A stretch of DNA of 20,000 nucleotides from an uncultured virus (IMG/VR IMGVR_UViG_3300028734_000019) (IMGVR_UViG_3300028734_000019:56109-76108); one strand, 5' to 3'. Counted from the first letter of the stretch, positions 2,089 through 7,987 are shown. The notes: generated by a model from the sequence alone, not told the origin. Made by a program: numbers and translations.

Positions 2089-2119
2089 CAAATGTACAAC
2101 AATTAATCCAATTCACAAA
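2089..2119 (-). promoter_or_regulatory. Bacteroidota-type promoter for rtcB
   Basis: Minus strand TTTG-N19-TACATTTG, about 50 nt upstream of the rtcB ATG. Confidence 0.7.
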
Positions 2120-2354
2120 ATATTTTATTCAATTTATTCAATTTATTTTTTCTTAAAATTCTTTTACTAATGAAAAATGAATAAAATATTATATCGCATA
2201 TGATACCAACATCTGTCATTATTGTTATTGTACTATAATTTCTACCTATTTCTAATACTTTATATTCTTTATTTACTGTTATGAGGTTATCATTTGTATA
2301 ATCATTTTTAATGCAAATTAAAAAATCTCCAACTATAATTTTGTCATATTTCAT
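2103..2354 (-). CDS. Small SH3/KOW-like 'VGD..C' paralog with RxxKL tail
   Basis: IIVGDFLICI...ITVNKEYKV...FISKRILRKNKLNKL; similar to 2344..2676, 2664..2933 and 6377..6631. Confidence 0.75.
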   Translation of the reverse strand: MKYDKIIVGDFLICIKNDYTNDNLITVNKEYKVLEIGRNYSTITIMTDVGIICDIIFYSFFISKRILRKNKLNKLNKIFCELD

Positions 2355-2676
2355 TTAATTTTTTTAGTTTTGATGTTCTATATTCTTTTAACCCAATAAA
2401 TCTATTTATATCAAAAACTGTATATCCATATATTTCCTCAACTTCTTCTAACATATATGAAGTATTTTGATATCTACTGCTAGTATCATCAAGTAATTCA
2501 TAGCAATTTCCATCATCATCCCAATATGATTGAATTTTTTTAATGGTATATGTTTTATTTATTTCTAAAGGATTTGATTTTTTGTATTTTAAACAATATG
2601 AAATGAAATCATAAAAAATGTTATCAGATTTAGGCGTATTATCAATACAAACCATAATATCTCCTACTTTGTACAT
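2344..2676 (-). CDS. Small SH3/KOW-like 'VGD..C' paralog with RxxKL tail
   Basis: YKVGDIMVCID...LEINKTYTI...FIGLKEYRTSKLKKL. Confidence 0.8.
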   Translation of the reverse strand: MYKVGDIMVCIDNTPKSDNIFYDFISYCLKYKKSNPLEINKTYTIKKIQSYWDDDGNCYELLDDTSSRYQNTSYMLEEVEEIYGYTVFDINRFIGLKEYRTSKLKKLNEI

Positions 2677-2933
2677 ATTTTATTCAGTTTTTCTAATTTC
2701 ATTTTTCTAATTATTTTTTTATCAGAAAAAAATCGTATTGGTACAAATTGACTCAATTTTTTGTTATCACTTCTTACCACAATTTTATTTTCAAAATGCC
2801 AATCAATATCCTCAATTTTATATTTTTTCCCTACTGTCAAATGTTGATCCCAGTAATCATTATCATCAAATGTTACACAAGTGACAATTTGTCCTACTTT
2901 AAAATCATCGTTAGTTAATTCTGTGTCTTTCAT
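2664..2933 (-). CDS. Small SH3/KOW-like 'VGQ..C' paralog with RxxKL tail
   Basis: FKVGQIVTCV...LTVGKKYKI...FFSDKKIIRKMKLEKL. Confidence 0.8.
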   Translation of the reverse strand: MKDTELTNDDFKVGQIVTCVTFDDNDYWDQHLTVGKKYKIEDIDWHFENKIVVRSDNKKLSQFVPIRFFSDKKIIRKMKLEKLNKICTK

Positions 2934-3192
2934 TTATTTTATTTAGTTTAGATATTCTCAATATTGAAATCACTTGAAGTTCAGTTAAAATTTTAATTTC
3001 ATAACTATCATGTTTACTATTATAATGAAATATAATAACTACAGTATAAAGTGATGAATTGAATTCTTTAACTATTTCACGAATACTAAAATCATATTTA
3101 TTATTGAATTTTTTGTTATAATATTTTTTCAATTCTCTTAATAACAGTAGATATGATTTAGTATCTAAATTAGATACTATGTTGTCTGACAT
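2911..3192 (-). CDS. Hypothetical protein with RxxKL tail (paralog of 3177..3467)
   Basis: YLLLLRELKKYY...LTELQVISILRISKLNKI. Confidence 0.75.
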   Translation of the reverse strand: MSDNIVSNLDTKSYLLLLRELKKYYNKKFNNKYDFSIREIVKEFNSSLYTVVIIFHYNSKHDSYEIKILTELQVISILRISKLNKINERHRIN

Positions 3193-3467
3193 AATTTATT
3201 CAGTTTATTTATTCTGCTTATATTATTTAATTGAAGTTCAGATAAATAATGATGTTCTATAACATAATGATATCCTGTTAATTTATATTTTTTTTCTAAT
3301 TTAACAGAAACAATATAATCATAATTGTTATTATCACTTTTCATAAATCTTAATACACTATATACATTATATCCGAACTCTGATTCTTTAAGTATATTTA
3401 TATAATATAATTTTAATTCTTCAAGTAATTTTTGATATTCTGGTGAATTGCTGTTGTATTTATACAT
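3177..3467 (-). CDS. Hypothetical protein with RxxKL tail (paralog of 2911..3192)
   Basis: YQKLLEELKLYY...LSELQLNNISRINKLNKL. Confidence 0.75.
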   Translation of the reverse strand: MYKYNSNSPEYQKLLEELKLYYINILKESEFGYNVYSVLRFMKSDNNNYDYIVSVKLEKKYKLTGYHYVIEHHYLSELQLNNISRINKLNKLCQTT

Positions 3468-3795
3468 TAATTTCTATTAATTTCTGTTTTCTCATAAAAA
3501 TATTATGTTCATTAACATTATCAAATTCATACAACTTATCATTAAATACTTCATAATCATTAAATGAAAGAATCACAGTTCCATGTTTTTCAAATTTAAA
3601 ATAAATCTTTTTTTCACTCAAAAGAGACATTTCAAATCTCTCATTAAATTTAGTATTCAAACAATTTATTAATGCAGATAAAATAAATTCATTTCTTTCT
3701 TCTAATTGAAAATAGTGTTCGATATAATAACAATTTTTAGGCATACCCCACAAACCATTATCTTGTTTTTTTGATTTTATAGGTATTATTTTCAT
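3460..3795 (-). CDS. Hypothetical protein with RxxKL tail
   Basis: Ends FMRKQKLIEINV; overlaps the next gene by 8 nt. Confidence 0.75.
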   Translation of the reverse strand: MKIIPIKSKKQDNGLWGMPKNCYYIEHYFQLEERNEFILSALINCLNTKFNERFEMSLLSEKKIYFKFEKHGTVILSFNDYEVFNDKLYEFDNVNEHNIFMRKQKLIEINV

Positions 3796-3805
3796 AATAT
3801 TTAGA

Positions 3806-6160: not shown

Positions 6161-6177
6161 AAAATAAATAAATAATA

Positions 6178-6366
6178 ATGAGAGCTATATGTAAGCTAGA
6201 TTACGGGCAGTTTGAAAATAACAAAACCTACAATTATTCACACACCAAAGACAATAAATATCATGTTGATGGACAATATGGAGACACAGAATTTAACAAG
6301 AGACAATTCGATGCATTATTCACATCAGAAAAACCAAAAACACAAAACAAATCATTTAATTTTTAA
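6178..6366 (+). CDS. Hypothetical protein (62 aa)
   Basis: ORF within the rightward array. Confidence 0.7.
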   Translation: MRAICKLDYGQFENNKTYNYSHTKDNKYHVDGQYGDTEFNKRQFDALFTSEKPKTQNKSFNF

Positions 6367-6376
6367 TATCTAAAAT

Positions 6377-6631
6377 ATGAAGTTTCATGTTGGTGATAAC
6401 GTTATATTCATAAATAATTCTAAAAATATTTATGGATGGAATCTCAAGGAGTATAAAACATATAAAATATATGGATATTCATATCGATATTCAGATAATT
6501 TATCTGATATTTTATATTCTGTAAAATTTGGAACCACTATTCAAAGTTGGTATCTTGAATGTGATTTTATGTCAATAAAAGAATATAGAAAATTAAAAAT
6601 AAAAATGTTGAATAGTTATGGGATGTGGTAG
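6377..6631 (+). CDS. Small SH3/KOW-like 'VGD' paralog with RxxKI tail
   Basis: FHVGDNVIFIN...LKEYKTYKI...FMSIKEYRKLKIKML. Confidence 0.75.
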   Translation: MKFHVGDNVIFINNSKNIYGWNLKEYKTYKIYGYSYRYSDNLSDILYSVKFGTTIQSWYLECDFMSIKEYRKLKIKMLNSYGMW

Positions 6632-6881
6632 AGAAACACAAAATTTATTTCATTATATTAAATATAAGAATTGGAATAAAACTTGGAAATTAATTAAAAA
6701 TTTTGATAGAATTACTTTTGATGATACATTTATGCCATTGATTTGTAAAATAAATGGTCACAAACCATATCAACCAGATAAACAATATGAGCCAGATAGT
6801 TGGGCTTGTAATAGATGTCACAGATATATAAATTACAATTCAAGAAAAGAAAAATTAAAAAAATTAAAAAAATTAAAATGA
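6618..6881 (+). CDS. DUF1660-like zinc-finger protein with RxxKL tail
   Basis: LICKINGHK...CNRC; ends SRKEKLKKLKKLK. Confidence 0.6.
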   Translation: MGCGRETQNLFHYIKYKNWNKTWKLIKNFDRITFDDTFMPLICKINGHKPYQPDKQYEPDSWACNRCHRYINYNSRKEKLKKLKKLK

Positions 6882-7195
6882 AACTTTTTAAAGATATAAT
6901 AAAAACTATAATCAATTCAATTAATCCATTTTATGAAAGTAATAAACAGTTCGAACAAATCAATAAATTATTTAAAGAATTAAAAAAAAATCAATTAGAT
7001 GTTTATAGATGTGAAATTGATAGACTTCTGAATATGACTGAAGATGAAAAAAAAAATGAGCATGAAAAATTGTTGATATTAGAAGCAAATCAAATCATAA
7101 ATAAATTAGAATCTGATACAGAATTATACAAAGTATTTAATAATATATTAAGAAGAAATAAACTTGGAAAAATAGTAGATAATAAAAATGAGTAA
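6878..7195 (+). CDS. Helical hypothetical protein with RxxKL tail (start revised from 6815)
   Basis: ATGA overlap at 6878-6881 gives MKLFKDIIK...; ends ILRRNKLGKIVDNKNE. Confidence 0.75.
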   Translation: MKLFKDIIKTIINSINPFYESNKQFEQINKLFKELKKNQLDVYRCEIDRLLNMTEDEKKNEHEKLLILEANQIINKLESDTELYKVFNNILRRNKLGKIVDNKNE

Positions 7196-7772
7196 TTTAA
7201 TAGAACACGCTAAAAGAGAATTTCTAAAAATAGGTTATAAACCTGTTGAAGAATGTGAAAATGATCCAGATAAATGGGTACAAGAAAATGTGTTAGAGTT
7301 ACTAGAAGTTTTTTCTAAACAAGGACATTCTGGGTTTTCAGCGTCATATGCTATTAGTTATTTTACAAAATTAGCTAATTTTAAGCCAATTGCACCTATC
7401 ATGTGTACTGATGATGAATGGATTGATGTGACTATGGATGATAGTGAAATGTTATTTCAGAATAATCGTTGTAGTGCTGTTTTTAAAGTATCAACTGATG
7501 GTAGTCCATATTATTTGGATGCAATTGTTTTTGTTGATGAAAATAATTCATCATATACTGGCGGAGCACTTAATAATAAGAATGAAAGTATTACAAGCAA
7601 ACAAACAATAAAAATTCCTTTCACACCAAAAACATTTTATGTTAATGTTATAGAGATTGATGATGAAAGTCGTATTAAAGATGAATCTCAATTGAAAGAA
7701 ATTTGGAGTTATTATGAACATCAAGAAACAAAATCATATATTAGATATAAAAAATTAAAAAAATTAAAATGA
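7188..7772 (+). CDS. Conserved-type phage hypothetical protein with RxxKL tail
   Basis: HAKREF...VFSKQGHSGFSA...QNNRCSAVFK resembles a widespread phage family (from memory); ends YIRYKKLKKLK. Confidence 0.8.
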   Translation: MSNLIEHAKREFLKIGYKPVEECENDPDKWVQENVLELLEVFSKQGHSGFSASYAISYFTKLANFKPIAPIMCTDDEWIDVTMDDSEMLFQNNRCSAVFKVSTDGSPYYLDAIVFVDENNSSYTGGALNNKNESITSKQTIKIPFTPKTFYVNVIEIDDESRIKDESQLKEIWSYYEHQETKSYIRYKKLKKLK

Positions 7773-7987
7773 AAATAACAATAGACGAAACAAAATTTGA
7801 TGTTAAATTCAGTCGAGATGAATTACCTGATCAAATAAAGACAAATTCAGTTACTAGCATGTTAAAGGAGTGGACTATATTAAGTCAACAATATAAGATT
7901 GAACAAATAAGAAAAGAAAAAATAAAAATAAGACTTGATAAATTAAATGAAATAATTTCTAAATCAAATGACAATACAAAATTATAA
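7769..7987 (+). CDS. Hypothetical protein with RxxKL tail
   Basis: IRKEKIKIRLDKLNEI; ATGA overlap with the upstream gene. Confidence 0.7.
   Translation: MKITIDETKFDVKFSRDELPDQIKTNSVTSMLKEWTILSQQYKIEQIRKEKIKIRLDKLNEIISKSNDNTKL

Follow-up and report, generated by a model that had tools for sequence, protein, structure and literature searches.

A shared C-terminal peptide on small accessory proteins of very AT-rich huge phages

Why do small viral proteins with different bodies end in nearly the same peptide? The question is raised by a stretch of 20,000 nucleotides from an uncultured virus (IMGVR_UViG_3300028734_000019:56109-76108; the window), in which an earlier note, made from the sequence alone, reported thirteen genes whose products carry R-x-x-K-[LI]-x-x-[LI] close to the stop codon and proposed that this tag (here the R-tag) recruits diverse cargo to a common hub. 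In the present analysis the observation was confirmed, and it was extended to whole genomes and a published megaphage. A clade of very AT-rich huge phages was found to tag about 10-16% of its proteins in this way.

Occurrence of the tag in the window and in related phages

The window is the final 20 kb of a 76,108-bp viral record with a guanine plus cytosine (G+C) content of 24%. Open reading frames (ORFs) of at least 40 amino acids were called greedily, longest first and mainly from ATG starts, and this crude procedure resulted in 151 ORFs on the record; the denominators given below are ORF counts and not curated genes, and the C-termini are independent of the choice of start codon. A protein was considered tagged when the core pattern R-x-x-K-[LI]-x-x-[LI] was situated fully within its last 20 residues. 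Two further genomes were read whole. A 330-kb relative (G001) contained 587 ORFs and forms with the record a joint set of 738 ORFs, 118 of which are tagged. LR756502.1, a complete megaphage of 642 kb, has 983 ORFs by the same caller; it was the best match among deposited phage records (DnaK 58% identical) and is discussed, in a part of PMC9723777, as among the largest megaphages. A search with the Tad3-like protein of the window (7188-7772) retrieved 42 viral loci. The contigs with identical or related sequence were up to 330 kb long at a CheckV completeness of 20-46%, which places the genome of the window at roughly 0.7 Mb.

On the record, the pattern was found 32 times among the 151 ORFs, 26 times within the last 20 residues and 6 times elsewhere. 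The expectation was 0.24 when whole proteins were shuffled and 0.35 when the last 25 residues were shuffled (maximum 3 in both cases, 1000 shuffles each). Chance is therefore excluded, and the comparison with shuffled sequence that had been proposed for the tag came out clearly in its favour. The 330-kb relative had 92 of 587 ORFs tagged at the C-terminus, with 20 further matches elsewhere; the median length of these tagged proteins was 91 amino acids and the maximum 293. LR756502.1 had 108 of 983 ORFs tagged against 3.3 expected (maximum 9 in 200 shuffles). In one 20-kb locus (L014) more than half of the ORFs, 26 of 48, carried the tag.

From 192 non-redundant tags the fuller consensus [YF]-F-[YI]-[TS]-[ILK]-K-E-[LIY]-R-K-x-K-L-[KNE]-K-[LI]-N-x-[IL] was determined. 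In all 192 the motif is followed by 0-12 residues, most often 3-6, the C-terminal placement being given by the construction of the search. Two types of the tag could be distinguished: the AT-rich clade to which the window belongs has R-[KR]-x-K-L-x-K-[LI]-N, and contigs with a G+C content of 28-35% have R-[DE]-x-K-[LI]-x-x-[LI]-[LIF]. The consensus of LR756502.1 was R-[DNE]-x-K-[LI]-x-x-[IL]-[LG], with D, E or N at position 2 in 85% of the tags. Among 71 viral loci fetched via DnaK, 21 hold at least two tags within 10 kb by a relaxed pattern, a co-location that is biased, as these loci were chosen through DnaK itself. In a FastTree phylogeny of 59 DnaK sequences the tagged loci fell into three clades, and the fourth main clade, of 23 rows, held none.

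The hosts of the tag-using clade are probably of Bacteroidota type. Many operon starts of the record carry GTATCTTTG-type boxes (TAnnTTTG), for example before L002:6938-7420(-), L003:15110-15286(-), and window 15479-17338(-) and 18044-18283(+). TAnnTTTG corresponds to the Bacteroidetes -7 promoter element, and its presence at operon starts suggests such a host.

Tagged proteins, residue choice and selection

All thirteen listed peptides were recovered in the translations of the respective genes, in two divergent arrays, with 1-10 residues between the motif and the stop codon:

2103..2354, minus strand: SH3-like protein, 83 amino acids; tag RKNKLNKL at 2130-2153
2344..2676, minus strand: SH3-like protein, 110 amino acids; tag RTSKLKKL at 2356-2379
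2664..2933, minus strand: SH3-like protein, 89 amino acids; tag RKMKLEKL at 2685-2708; beta-barrel with terminal helix 72-88 predicted by AlphaFold2
2911..3192, minus strand: protein of 93 amino acids; tag RISKLNKI at 2935-2958
3177..3467, minus strand: protein of 96 amino acids; tag RINKLNKL at 3192-3215
3460..3795, minus strand: protein of 111 amino acids; tag RKQKLIEI at 3469-3492
4312..4482, minus strand: mini-protein of 56 amino acids, GTG start, DFASLYPS stretch; tag RRQKLEKI at 4327-4350
4469..5122, minus strand: protein of 217 amino acids, AEP-like by the label of the earlier note only; tag RKLKLKKI at 4490-4513
5350..5573, no strand: divergent intergenic region between the tagged arrays, TAATTTTG-T-TATCTTTG boxes (TAnnTTTG type) and a TATATATA box
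6377..6631, plus strand: SH3-like protein, 84 amino acids; tag RKLKIKML at 6587-6610
6618..6881, plus strand: zinc-ribbon protein, 87 amino acids, weak DUF1660 match (E 4e-4); tag RKEKLKKL at 6843-6866
6878..7195, plus strand: helical protein, longest ORF from 6815; tag RRNKLGKI at 7151-7174
7188..7772, plus strand: Tad3-domain protein, 194 amino acids, Pfam PF25185 at residues 2-125 (E 3e-37); tag RYKKLKKL at 7743-7766
7769..7987, plus strand: protein of 72 amino acids; tag RLDKLNEI at 7931-7954

The start of the helical protein was placed at 6878 and not at 6815 because the alignment with the orthologue of the 330-kb relative begins at residue 22. The tag is absent from the translations of RtcB, the N6/N4 methyltransferase and DHFR, as had been claimed.

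The attachment of the tag to otherwise complete proteins was most evident for the Tad3-like family (alignment A3). The tag was present in 8 of 8 homologues from tag-using loci, in which 12-25 residues follow a shared '...YY(E/D)' end. Of the homologues from other phages, 0 of 15 carried it, and all of them stop at that end or earlier; the ORFs neighbouring these 15 carried 0-1 tags per locus. A similar pattern was detected with two further families: the PHROG 2164-like protein has 161 amino acids here and 118, without the tail, outside the clade, and the PHROG 21321-like protein has 103 amino acids compared with 83 in a version ending ahead of the tail. Descent of all tagged proteins from a single diverged family was rejected on account of these tail-less homologues. 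Together with the SH3-like barrel, DUF6794, an acyl-carrier domain and riboflavin kinase, the three families bear out the proposal of a modular tag on differing folds. Apparent untagged orthologues of tagged proteins turned out to carry degenerate or displaced tags.

That the bodies are mostly unrelated, as had been stated, holds in part. By BLASTP, which is insensitive on short AT-rich bodies, the 27 tagged bodies of the record formed 27 clusters with no pair at E<=1e-3, and the 92 bodies of the 330-kb relative formed 72 clusters, the largest of 14. However, four window proteins (2103, 2344, 2664 and 6377) belong to one SH3-like family, with 23-36% identity to the first row of alignment A1 (window 2664-2933). 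Pfam matches were obtained for 7 of 145 tagged proteins (Tad3 twice, DUF6794 twice, an acyl-carrier domain, weak ResIII and weak DUF5075) and for 3 of 53 in LR756502.1 (riboflavin kinase, DUF6011, BtpA-like), and the matched families are unrelated to one another. The possibility that tagged proteins are fragments of the phage's own large proteins was also rejected: a phmmer search of 118 bodies against the 738 ORFs gave no larger untagged core match at E<=1e-3, the DFASLYPS stretch of the 56-residue protein being too small for this test.

The residue choice within the tag is narrow. At positions 1 and 4 of the C-terminal matches the pair R..K was counted 118 times, K..K 31 times, K..R 4 times and R..R not once, even though Lys outnumbers Arg fourfold in these proteomes. 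Position 5 was L in 96 cases, I in 22, V and F in one each and M in none; position 8 was L in 72 and I in 46, without V, M or F. Such a rigid choice is as predicted by a fitted pocket and unlike generic binding by charge and hydrophobicity. Since R1 and K4 are not interchangeable, one specific reader is favoured over generic charge, and among the destinations proposed earlier a common hub fits better than membrane or nucleic-acid binding.

The earlier claim of a basic amphipathic helix agrees with structure prediction. In both proteins modelled by AlphaFold2 the tag was placed in a terminal alpha-helix. The SH3-like protein of 89 amino acids was predicted as a small barrel with a helix at residues 72-88 (predicted local distance difference test, pLDDT, 81), and its best Foldseek matches, SH3 and Tudor folds, were weak. 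In the Tad3-domain model the helix comprises residues 182-193 and follows a short loop. The net charge of the tag is about +4 and Leu or Ile recurs at positions 5, 8 and 11; by helix geometry, residues 1, 4, 5 and 8 would lie on one face.

The varied codons of the tag had been taken as a sign of selection on protein, and this was borne out. Leu at position 5 was encoded by TTA in 0.64-0.67 of cases against a background of 0.57-0.60, with TTA, CTT, TTG, CTA, CTG and CTC all seen in tags. At the fixed residues, Lys AAA reached 0.91 against 0.88 and Arg AGA 0.86 against 0.76; Ile ATA was raised in tags (0.69 against 0.47), a mild lean to A-ending codons. In 51 orthologue pairs the substitutions across the tag were codon-periodic: synonymous and non-synonymous changes numbered 5 and 0 at R1, 0 and 1 at K4, and 12 and 7 at L5, and at positions 3, 6, 7 and 9-11 the residue differed in about half of the pairs. 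Conservation stronger in nucleotides than in amino acids, which would have spoken for a DNA element, was not seen in these pairs, the fixed residues changing synonymously. A degenerate nucleotide version of the pattern gave 32 in-frame matches and 25 others, most of which contain stops or sit in very short open stretches; the only clear gene added by them was 6618-6881. There was no same-strand gene starting within 50 nucleotides downstream of 35 of the 118 tagged genes, convergent pairs with overlapping 3' ends among them, and the share of genes coupled to a downstream gene was equal in tagged and untagged genes (83/35 against 344/200; odds ratio 1.38, p 0.17). On codon use, orthologue changes, frame counts and independence from the downstream gene, a promoter, a ribosome site, coupling and the ends of gene cassettes were rejected as explanations.

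One convergent pair, L001:10052-10714(+) and L001:10700-11074(-), overlaps by 15 nucleotides at the 3' ends, and both products are tagged (RKQKIQAL, RNKKIQVL). The product of the plus-strand gene has 220 amino acids and a weak ResIII ATPase match, and the pair is kept in the 330-kb relative. In the window, the mini-gene 4312-4482(-) overlaps the end of the tagged gene 4469-5122(-) and has an orthologue in another relative (L007). Its DFASLYPS stretch, a PolB motif according to the earlier note, is presumably motif A. Between the arrays, window 5870-6160(+) is an untagged ORF of 96 amino acids that contains the stretch GNSMLP and matches Peptidase_S24 weakly (E 0.0017). The conservation of this S24-like protein and of the other untagged array product, a zinc-finger/acidic protein of 169 amino acids, was limited to close relatives.

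A second class of terminal peptides

A separate set of proteins in the same genomes shares other terminal peptides. ORFs ending exactly in K-[FY]-N-[LIVM] made up 102 of 587 in the 330-kb relative against 0.29 expected from shuffles, and 9 of 151 on the record against 0.04. In the relative, the start M-x-x-hydrophobic-x-x-[FY], typically MKYIKKFE and more broadly of the form MK[YH][IL]KxFE, is shared by 74 of the 102 and was found in 36 of the 485 other ORFs and in only 3 of the 92 R-tagged ones; none of the 102 carries the R-tag. LR756502.1 has 139 ORFs with an N-terminus (MKHLKxY[NK][EI]FE) resembling the capsid targeting sequence (CTS) of T4, and only 4 of them are also R-tagged. These starts resemble those of the T4 internal proteins, MKTYQEFIAE in IPII and IPIII and MKTFKEF in IPI. 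According to sections of PMC9026906, the main determinants of targeting to the T4 capsid are residues 4 and 7, and those of processing residues 8 and 10. The CTS-like class was located as follows:

Window 11112-11522, 11494-12438, 13893-14177 and 14179-14517, minus strand: K-[FY]-N class, terminal peptides
G001 L117-L133 and LR756502.1 L151-L183: CTS-like class in the relatives

Expression timing was estimated with two regular expressions of our own, applied to up to 100 nucleotides upstream of each same-strand gene run. The late-type box was TATATA[AT]A or TATAAATA, after the T4 late promoter, and the host-type box was TAnnTTTG, after the Bacteroidetes -7 element; either box alone occurs in 7-11% of random 100-nucleotide windows. 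The genes were distributed as follows:

Record and G001, CTS-like (K[FY]N ending): host-type only 0, late-type only 65, both 13, neither 33
Record and G001, R-tagged: host-type only 11, late-type only 24, both 12, neither 71
LR756502.1, CTS-like N-terminus: host-type only 4, late-type only 46, both 2, neither 83
LR756502.1, R-tagged: host-type only 18, late-type only 5, both 9, neither 76

In LR756502.1 the two classes differed strongly in late against host boxes (odds ratio 41, p 3e-9). Expression of the CTS-like class looks late, and its products are probably head-bound; the K-[FY]-N class may be a packaged protein family of very large size. The R-tagged genes of LR756502.1 look early. In the record and the 330-kb relative, two arrays supply 16 of the 24 late-type calls of R-tagged genes.

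The genes of the K-[FY]-N class sit behind TATATATA late-type boxes, and consecutive ones often overlap by a few bases, so that the shared ends stand back to back. Window 11494-12438(-) encodes an ankyrin-repeat protein of 314 amino acids of the K-F-N-L class, and the 330-kb relative has at least five ankyrin-repeat proteins. The replication genes of this relative are of T4 type (gp32, UvsW, split family-B polymerase, topoisomerase II, PhoH). A 649-residue protein of the structural region had no tblastn match among cultured phages, and the T4 prohead protease family was detected in 0 of 5 records, with a weak match in LR756502.1.

Loading into the prohead for injection with the DNA, as by the T4 CTS or by encapsulin peptides, was considered for the R-tag as well. 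There is a precedent in T4-like phages, which according to sections of PMC3012670 and PMC9026906 sort diverse and fast-evolving anti-defence proteins into the head by means of a short shared terminal peptide, that is, to one destination; C-terminal propeptides are described for T4 Alt and gp21 (a section of PMC9026906). The T4 CTS is nevertheless N-terminal, about 10 residues long, cleaved by gp21 and present on few proteins (IPI-III), in contrast to a C-terminal tag of other sequence on about 100 proteins per genome. The R-tag does not follow the CTS pattern of hydrophobic or aromatic residues 4 and 7 followed by a gp21 site (L/I-x-E), and the C-terminus of T4 gp21 has no R-tag-like motif. 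An [LIVM]-x-E resembling the gp21 rule ends two residues before R1 in 29 of the 192 tags, which is only 15%. With a separate CTS-like class that is nearly never R-tagged, and with the opposite balance of late and host boxes in LR756502.1 (46 and 4 for the CTS-like class, 5 and 18 for the R-tagged), virion targeting by the R-tag is regarded as quite improbable.

Candidate readers, rival explanations and other observations

The reading that we favour, with a probability of roughly 0.55, is that the R-tag serves accessory proteins as a portable docking label, which forms a helix and is recognised by a single conserved partner. The recognition peptide, acting at the protein level, would be hydrophobic-K-E-hydrophobic-R-K-x-K-L-x-K-[LI]-N, forming the last helix of the protein. 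It would have been added to small, fast-evolving accessory proteins of many folds, including the anti-Thoeris Tad3 domain. We infer that the helix face of R1, K4 and residues 5 and 8 docks in one groove of a single conserved reader, by which all tagged proteins would be brought to the same place or machine. The leading but unproven candidate for this reader is a phage proteostasis machine, either the phage's own DnaK or the Hsp100/ClpP set of the complete relative, which could hold, deliver or clear the accessory proteome.

The phage DnaK is encoded at record 53957-55843 (L003:15960-17843(-)), about 270 bp upstream of the window and between R-tagged genes, and it is the sole reader candidate encoded among tagged genes. 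It matched Pfam HSP70 with E 1.8e-197 and NCBIfam NF001413 with 769 bits (cut-off 648). Of five records searched, one contained DnaJ; none was detected in the three large contigs of this clade. In LR756502.1 there are genes for three ClpP homologues, one of them above the cut-off (406 against 361 bits), and a two-ring Hsp100-type ATPase of 707 amino acids:

LR756502.1 L153:18610-19281(-), L156:12098-12763(-), L169:4437-5000(+) and L173:544-2664(+): ClpP and Hsp100 genes

The ATPase did not reach any NCBIfam cut-off and apparently lacks the usual N-terminal portion of the profile. Directly downstream of one ClpP gene lies an ORF of 146 amino acids ending in RNNKIDEVL. Two other approaches to the reader were abandoned: charge-swap columns in DnaK between the tag types numbered 43, too many clade differences to be read, and a small BRCT protein was rejected, as the only BRCT match in five records sits in an ORF of 652 amino acids.

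Several results speak against the proposed readers. Peptides bound in the cleft of DnaK are extended and have a contiguous hydrophobic core of 4-5 residues, with basic residues on either side. The tag has no such core, its two fixed hydrophobic residues standing three apart with polar or basic residues between them, and the 1-4-5-8 spacing fits a helix and not an extended peptide, which counts against DnaK. A locus with a DnaK 73% identical (L053) had one tag in 42 ORFs, no gene family besides DnaK was common to both tag types near DnaK, and the fetching of loci via DnaK weakens their co-location as an argument. Clp genes gave no match in eight contigs of the window's tag type (2-46% complete). 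Around 80 Clp-ATPase loci only 28 of 1806 ORFs were tagged and 42 of 62 sizeable loci had no tag, and a nearly complete 318-kb phage with 0-1 tags in two loci also carries an Hsp100-type ATPase. The timing boxes of R-tagged genes are mixed in the very AT-rich record and the 330-kb relative (host-type 11, late-type 24).

The main rival to a docking label is a degron or timer, in which the tag would mark accessory proteins to be unfolded and degraded at a set time by an AAA+ protease (phage Hsp100/ClpP, or host Clp, Lon or FtsH) and so clear the early arsenal on schedule. Precedents exist in basic C-terminal ClpX signals and in the SspB tail, and the strictly C-terminal position with usually 3-6 variable residues behind the motif possibly leaves a free end for engagement; the Clp homologues of LR756502.1, the tagged ORF behind one ClpP gene and the 18 host-type against 5 late-type boxes of that genome agree with such a role. 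On the other hand, no Clp gene was found in the contigs of the window's tag type, all of which are incomplete, Clp-ATPase neighbourhoods are poor in tags, and the same ATPase type occurs in the 318-kb phage with 0-1 tags in two loci. For riboflavin kinase and the Tad3 domain, both found tagged, it is not obvious why instability should be needed, and the 0-12 variable residues after the motif argue against the reading of a free carboxylate as with ssrA. Timed degradation is treated as possible but doubtful.

Head targeting and the remaining explanations are less likely than timed degradation. A generic basic amphipathic helix that binds membrane or nucleic acid without a dedicated reader would account for the net charge of about +4 and for Leu and Ile on one face of the predicted helix. 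Generic amphipathic binders, of the MinD/FtsA type for instance, tolerate exchanges of K with R and of L with F or V; the tag differs from them in the 118 R..K against no R..R and in V, M and F appearing only 0-1 times at positions 5 and 8, and the sister type, with D, E or N at position 2 in 85%, keeps the core at a lower charge, so this explanation is considered improbable. The tag might also be the inherited last helix of one family, or a helix zipping tagged proteins together, and the size of the SH3-like family, with 14 of the 92 tagged proteins of the 330-kb relative and four window proteins, and the Leu/Ile repeat at positions 5, 8 and 11 are in line with this. However, in three independent families the homologues from outside the clade stop short of the tail, unrelated Pfam domains occur among the bodies, and helices of a net charge of about +4 should repel their own kind, which makes common descent or self-association very improbable. 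Least credible of all is a nucleotide signal for the next gene (promoter, ribosome loading, coupling or recombination site) that is read through by the upstream ORF. In the minus-strand array of the window the motif does end 0-9 nucleotides ahead of the next start codon, and A-ending codons are in mild excess (Ile ATA 0.69 against 0.47), but this explanation is already contradicted: the 35 of 118 tagged genes that are uncoupled correspond to the share in untagged genes, most out-of-frame matches hold stops or very short open stretches, and Leu, Arg and Lys codons are near background under codon-periodic conservation with synonymous change at the fixed residues.

Known systems resemble the docking label in part. 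HscA, an Hsp70, reads one short motif (LPPVK) in its native client IscU, and here a DnaK is encoded among the tagged genes; the phage protein nevertheless scores as DnaK (769 bits) and not as HscA (463 bits), and the tag spacing suggests a helix and not an extended peptide. The C-terminal signals of Clp systems (ssrA, the basic tail of MuA type, the SspB tail) are likewise short peptides, some of them basic, that dock diverse proteins on one AAA+ machine. They have no sequence likeness to the tag, which is predicted to be helical and is followed by 0-12 variable residues. Variable bodies with one conserved C-terminal module leading to a single hub are found in poxvirus ankyrin-PRANC/F-box proteins and in SOCS/BC-box proteins, but these modules belong to eukaryotic ubiquitin ligases and comprise about 40 or more residues, compared with about 9-12 in the tag of a bacterial virus. 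Encapsulin cargo-loading peptides, which are C-terminal, about 10 residues long and carried by unrelated cargo, dock on one protein shell; their genes are few, adjoin the shell gene and have another consensus, whereas no shell gene is linked to the tagged genes. A shared C-terminal tag of this kind was not described in the literature searched on huge phages, jumbo phages and megaphages, including parts of PMC7824862 and PMC12619734. Within that literature the statement that no such system was known stands.

Most of what is known about huge phages consists of lists of small genes without annotation, and the tag provides a common handle for hundreds of their orphan proteins. A nine-residue label on 10-16% of ORFs is kept across diverged lineages and published complete megaphages, and its reader is probably central to the machinery of infection. 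Uses of the tag are to fish for this reader, to classify accessory genes and to separate the tagged set from the probable virion set, and the tagged Tad3 domain ties the tag system to anti-defence. If the reader were a phage chaperone or protease, the tag would represent a virus-run code for protein sorting or turnover and a portable tag for engineering. Speculatively, megaphages of this group might sort a quarter to a third of their ORFs by two terminal peptides, the CTS-like N-terminus directing more than 100 late proteins to the head and the R-tag helix directing about 100 accessory proteins to a phage proteostasis hub (DnaK or Hsp100/ClpP) that holds, delivers or clears the arsenal as one programmable set. 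Such two-peptide sorting, if true, would be a virus-encoded protein-addressing system of a kind undescribed for bacteria or their viruses.

Two minor observations were made elsewhere on these genomes. IMP dehydrogenase/GMP reductase is a single ORF of 345 amino acids in the record (L002:15369-16403(-)) and is split in the 330-kb relative into L120:3803-4390(-) and L120:4505-5371(-), the second of which begins with an intein-splicing match. The region at about L002 8600-12700 (record 27.6-31.7 kb) contains short ORFs and a helix-turn-helix protein with an HNH-like CxxCH end, as judged by eye, and its upstream sequences resemble putative transfer RNA genes by look.

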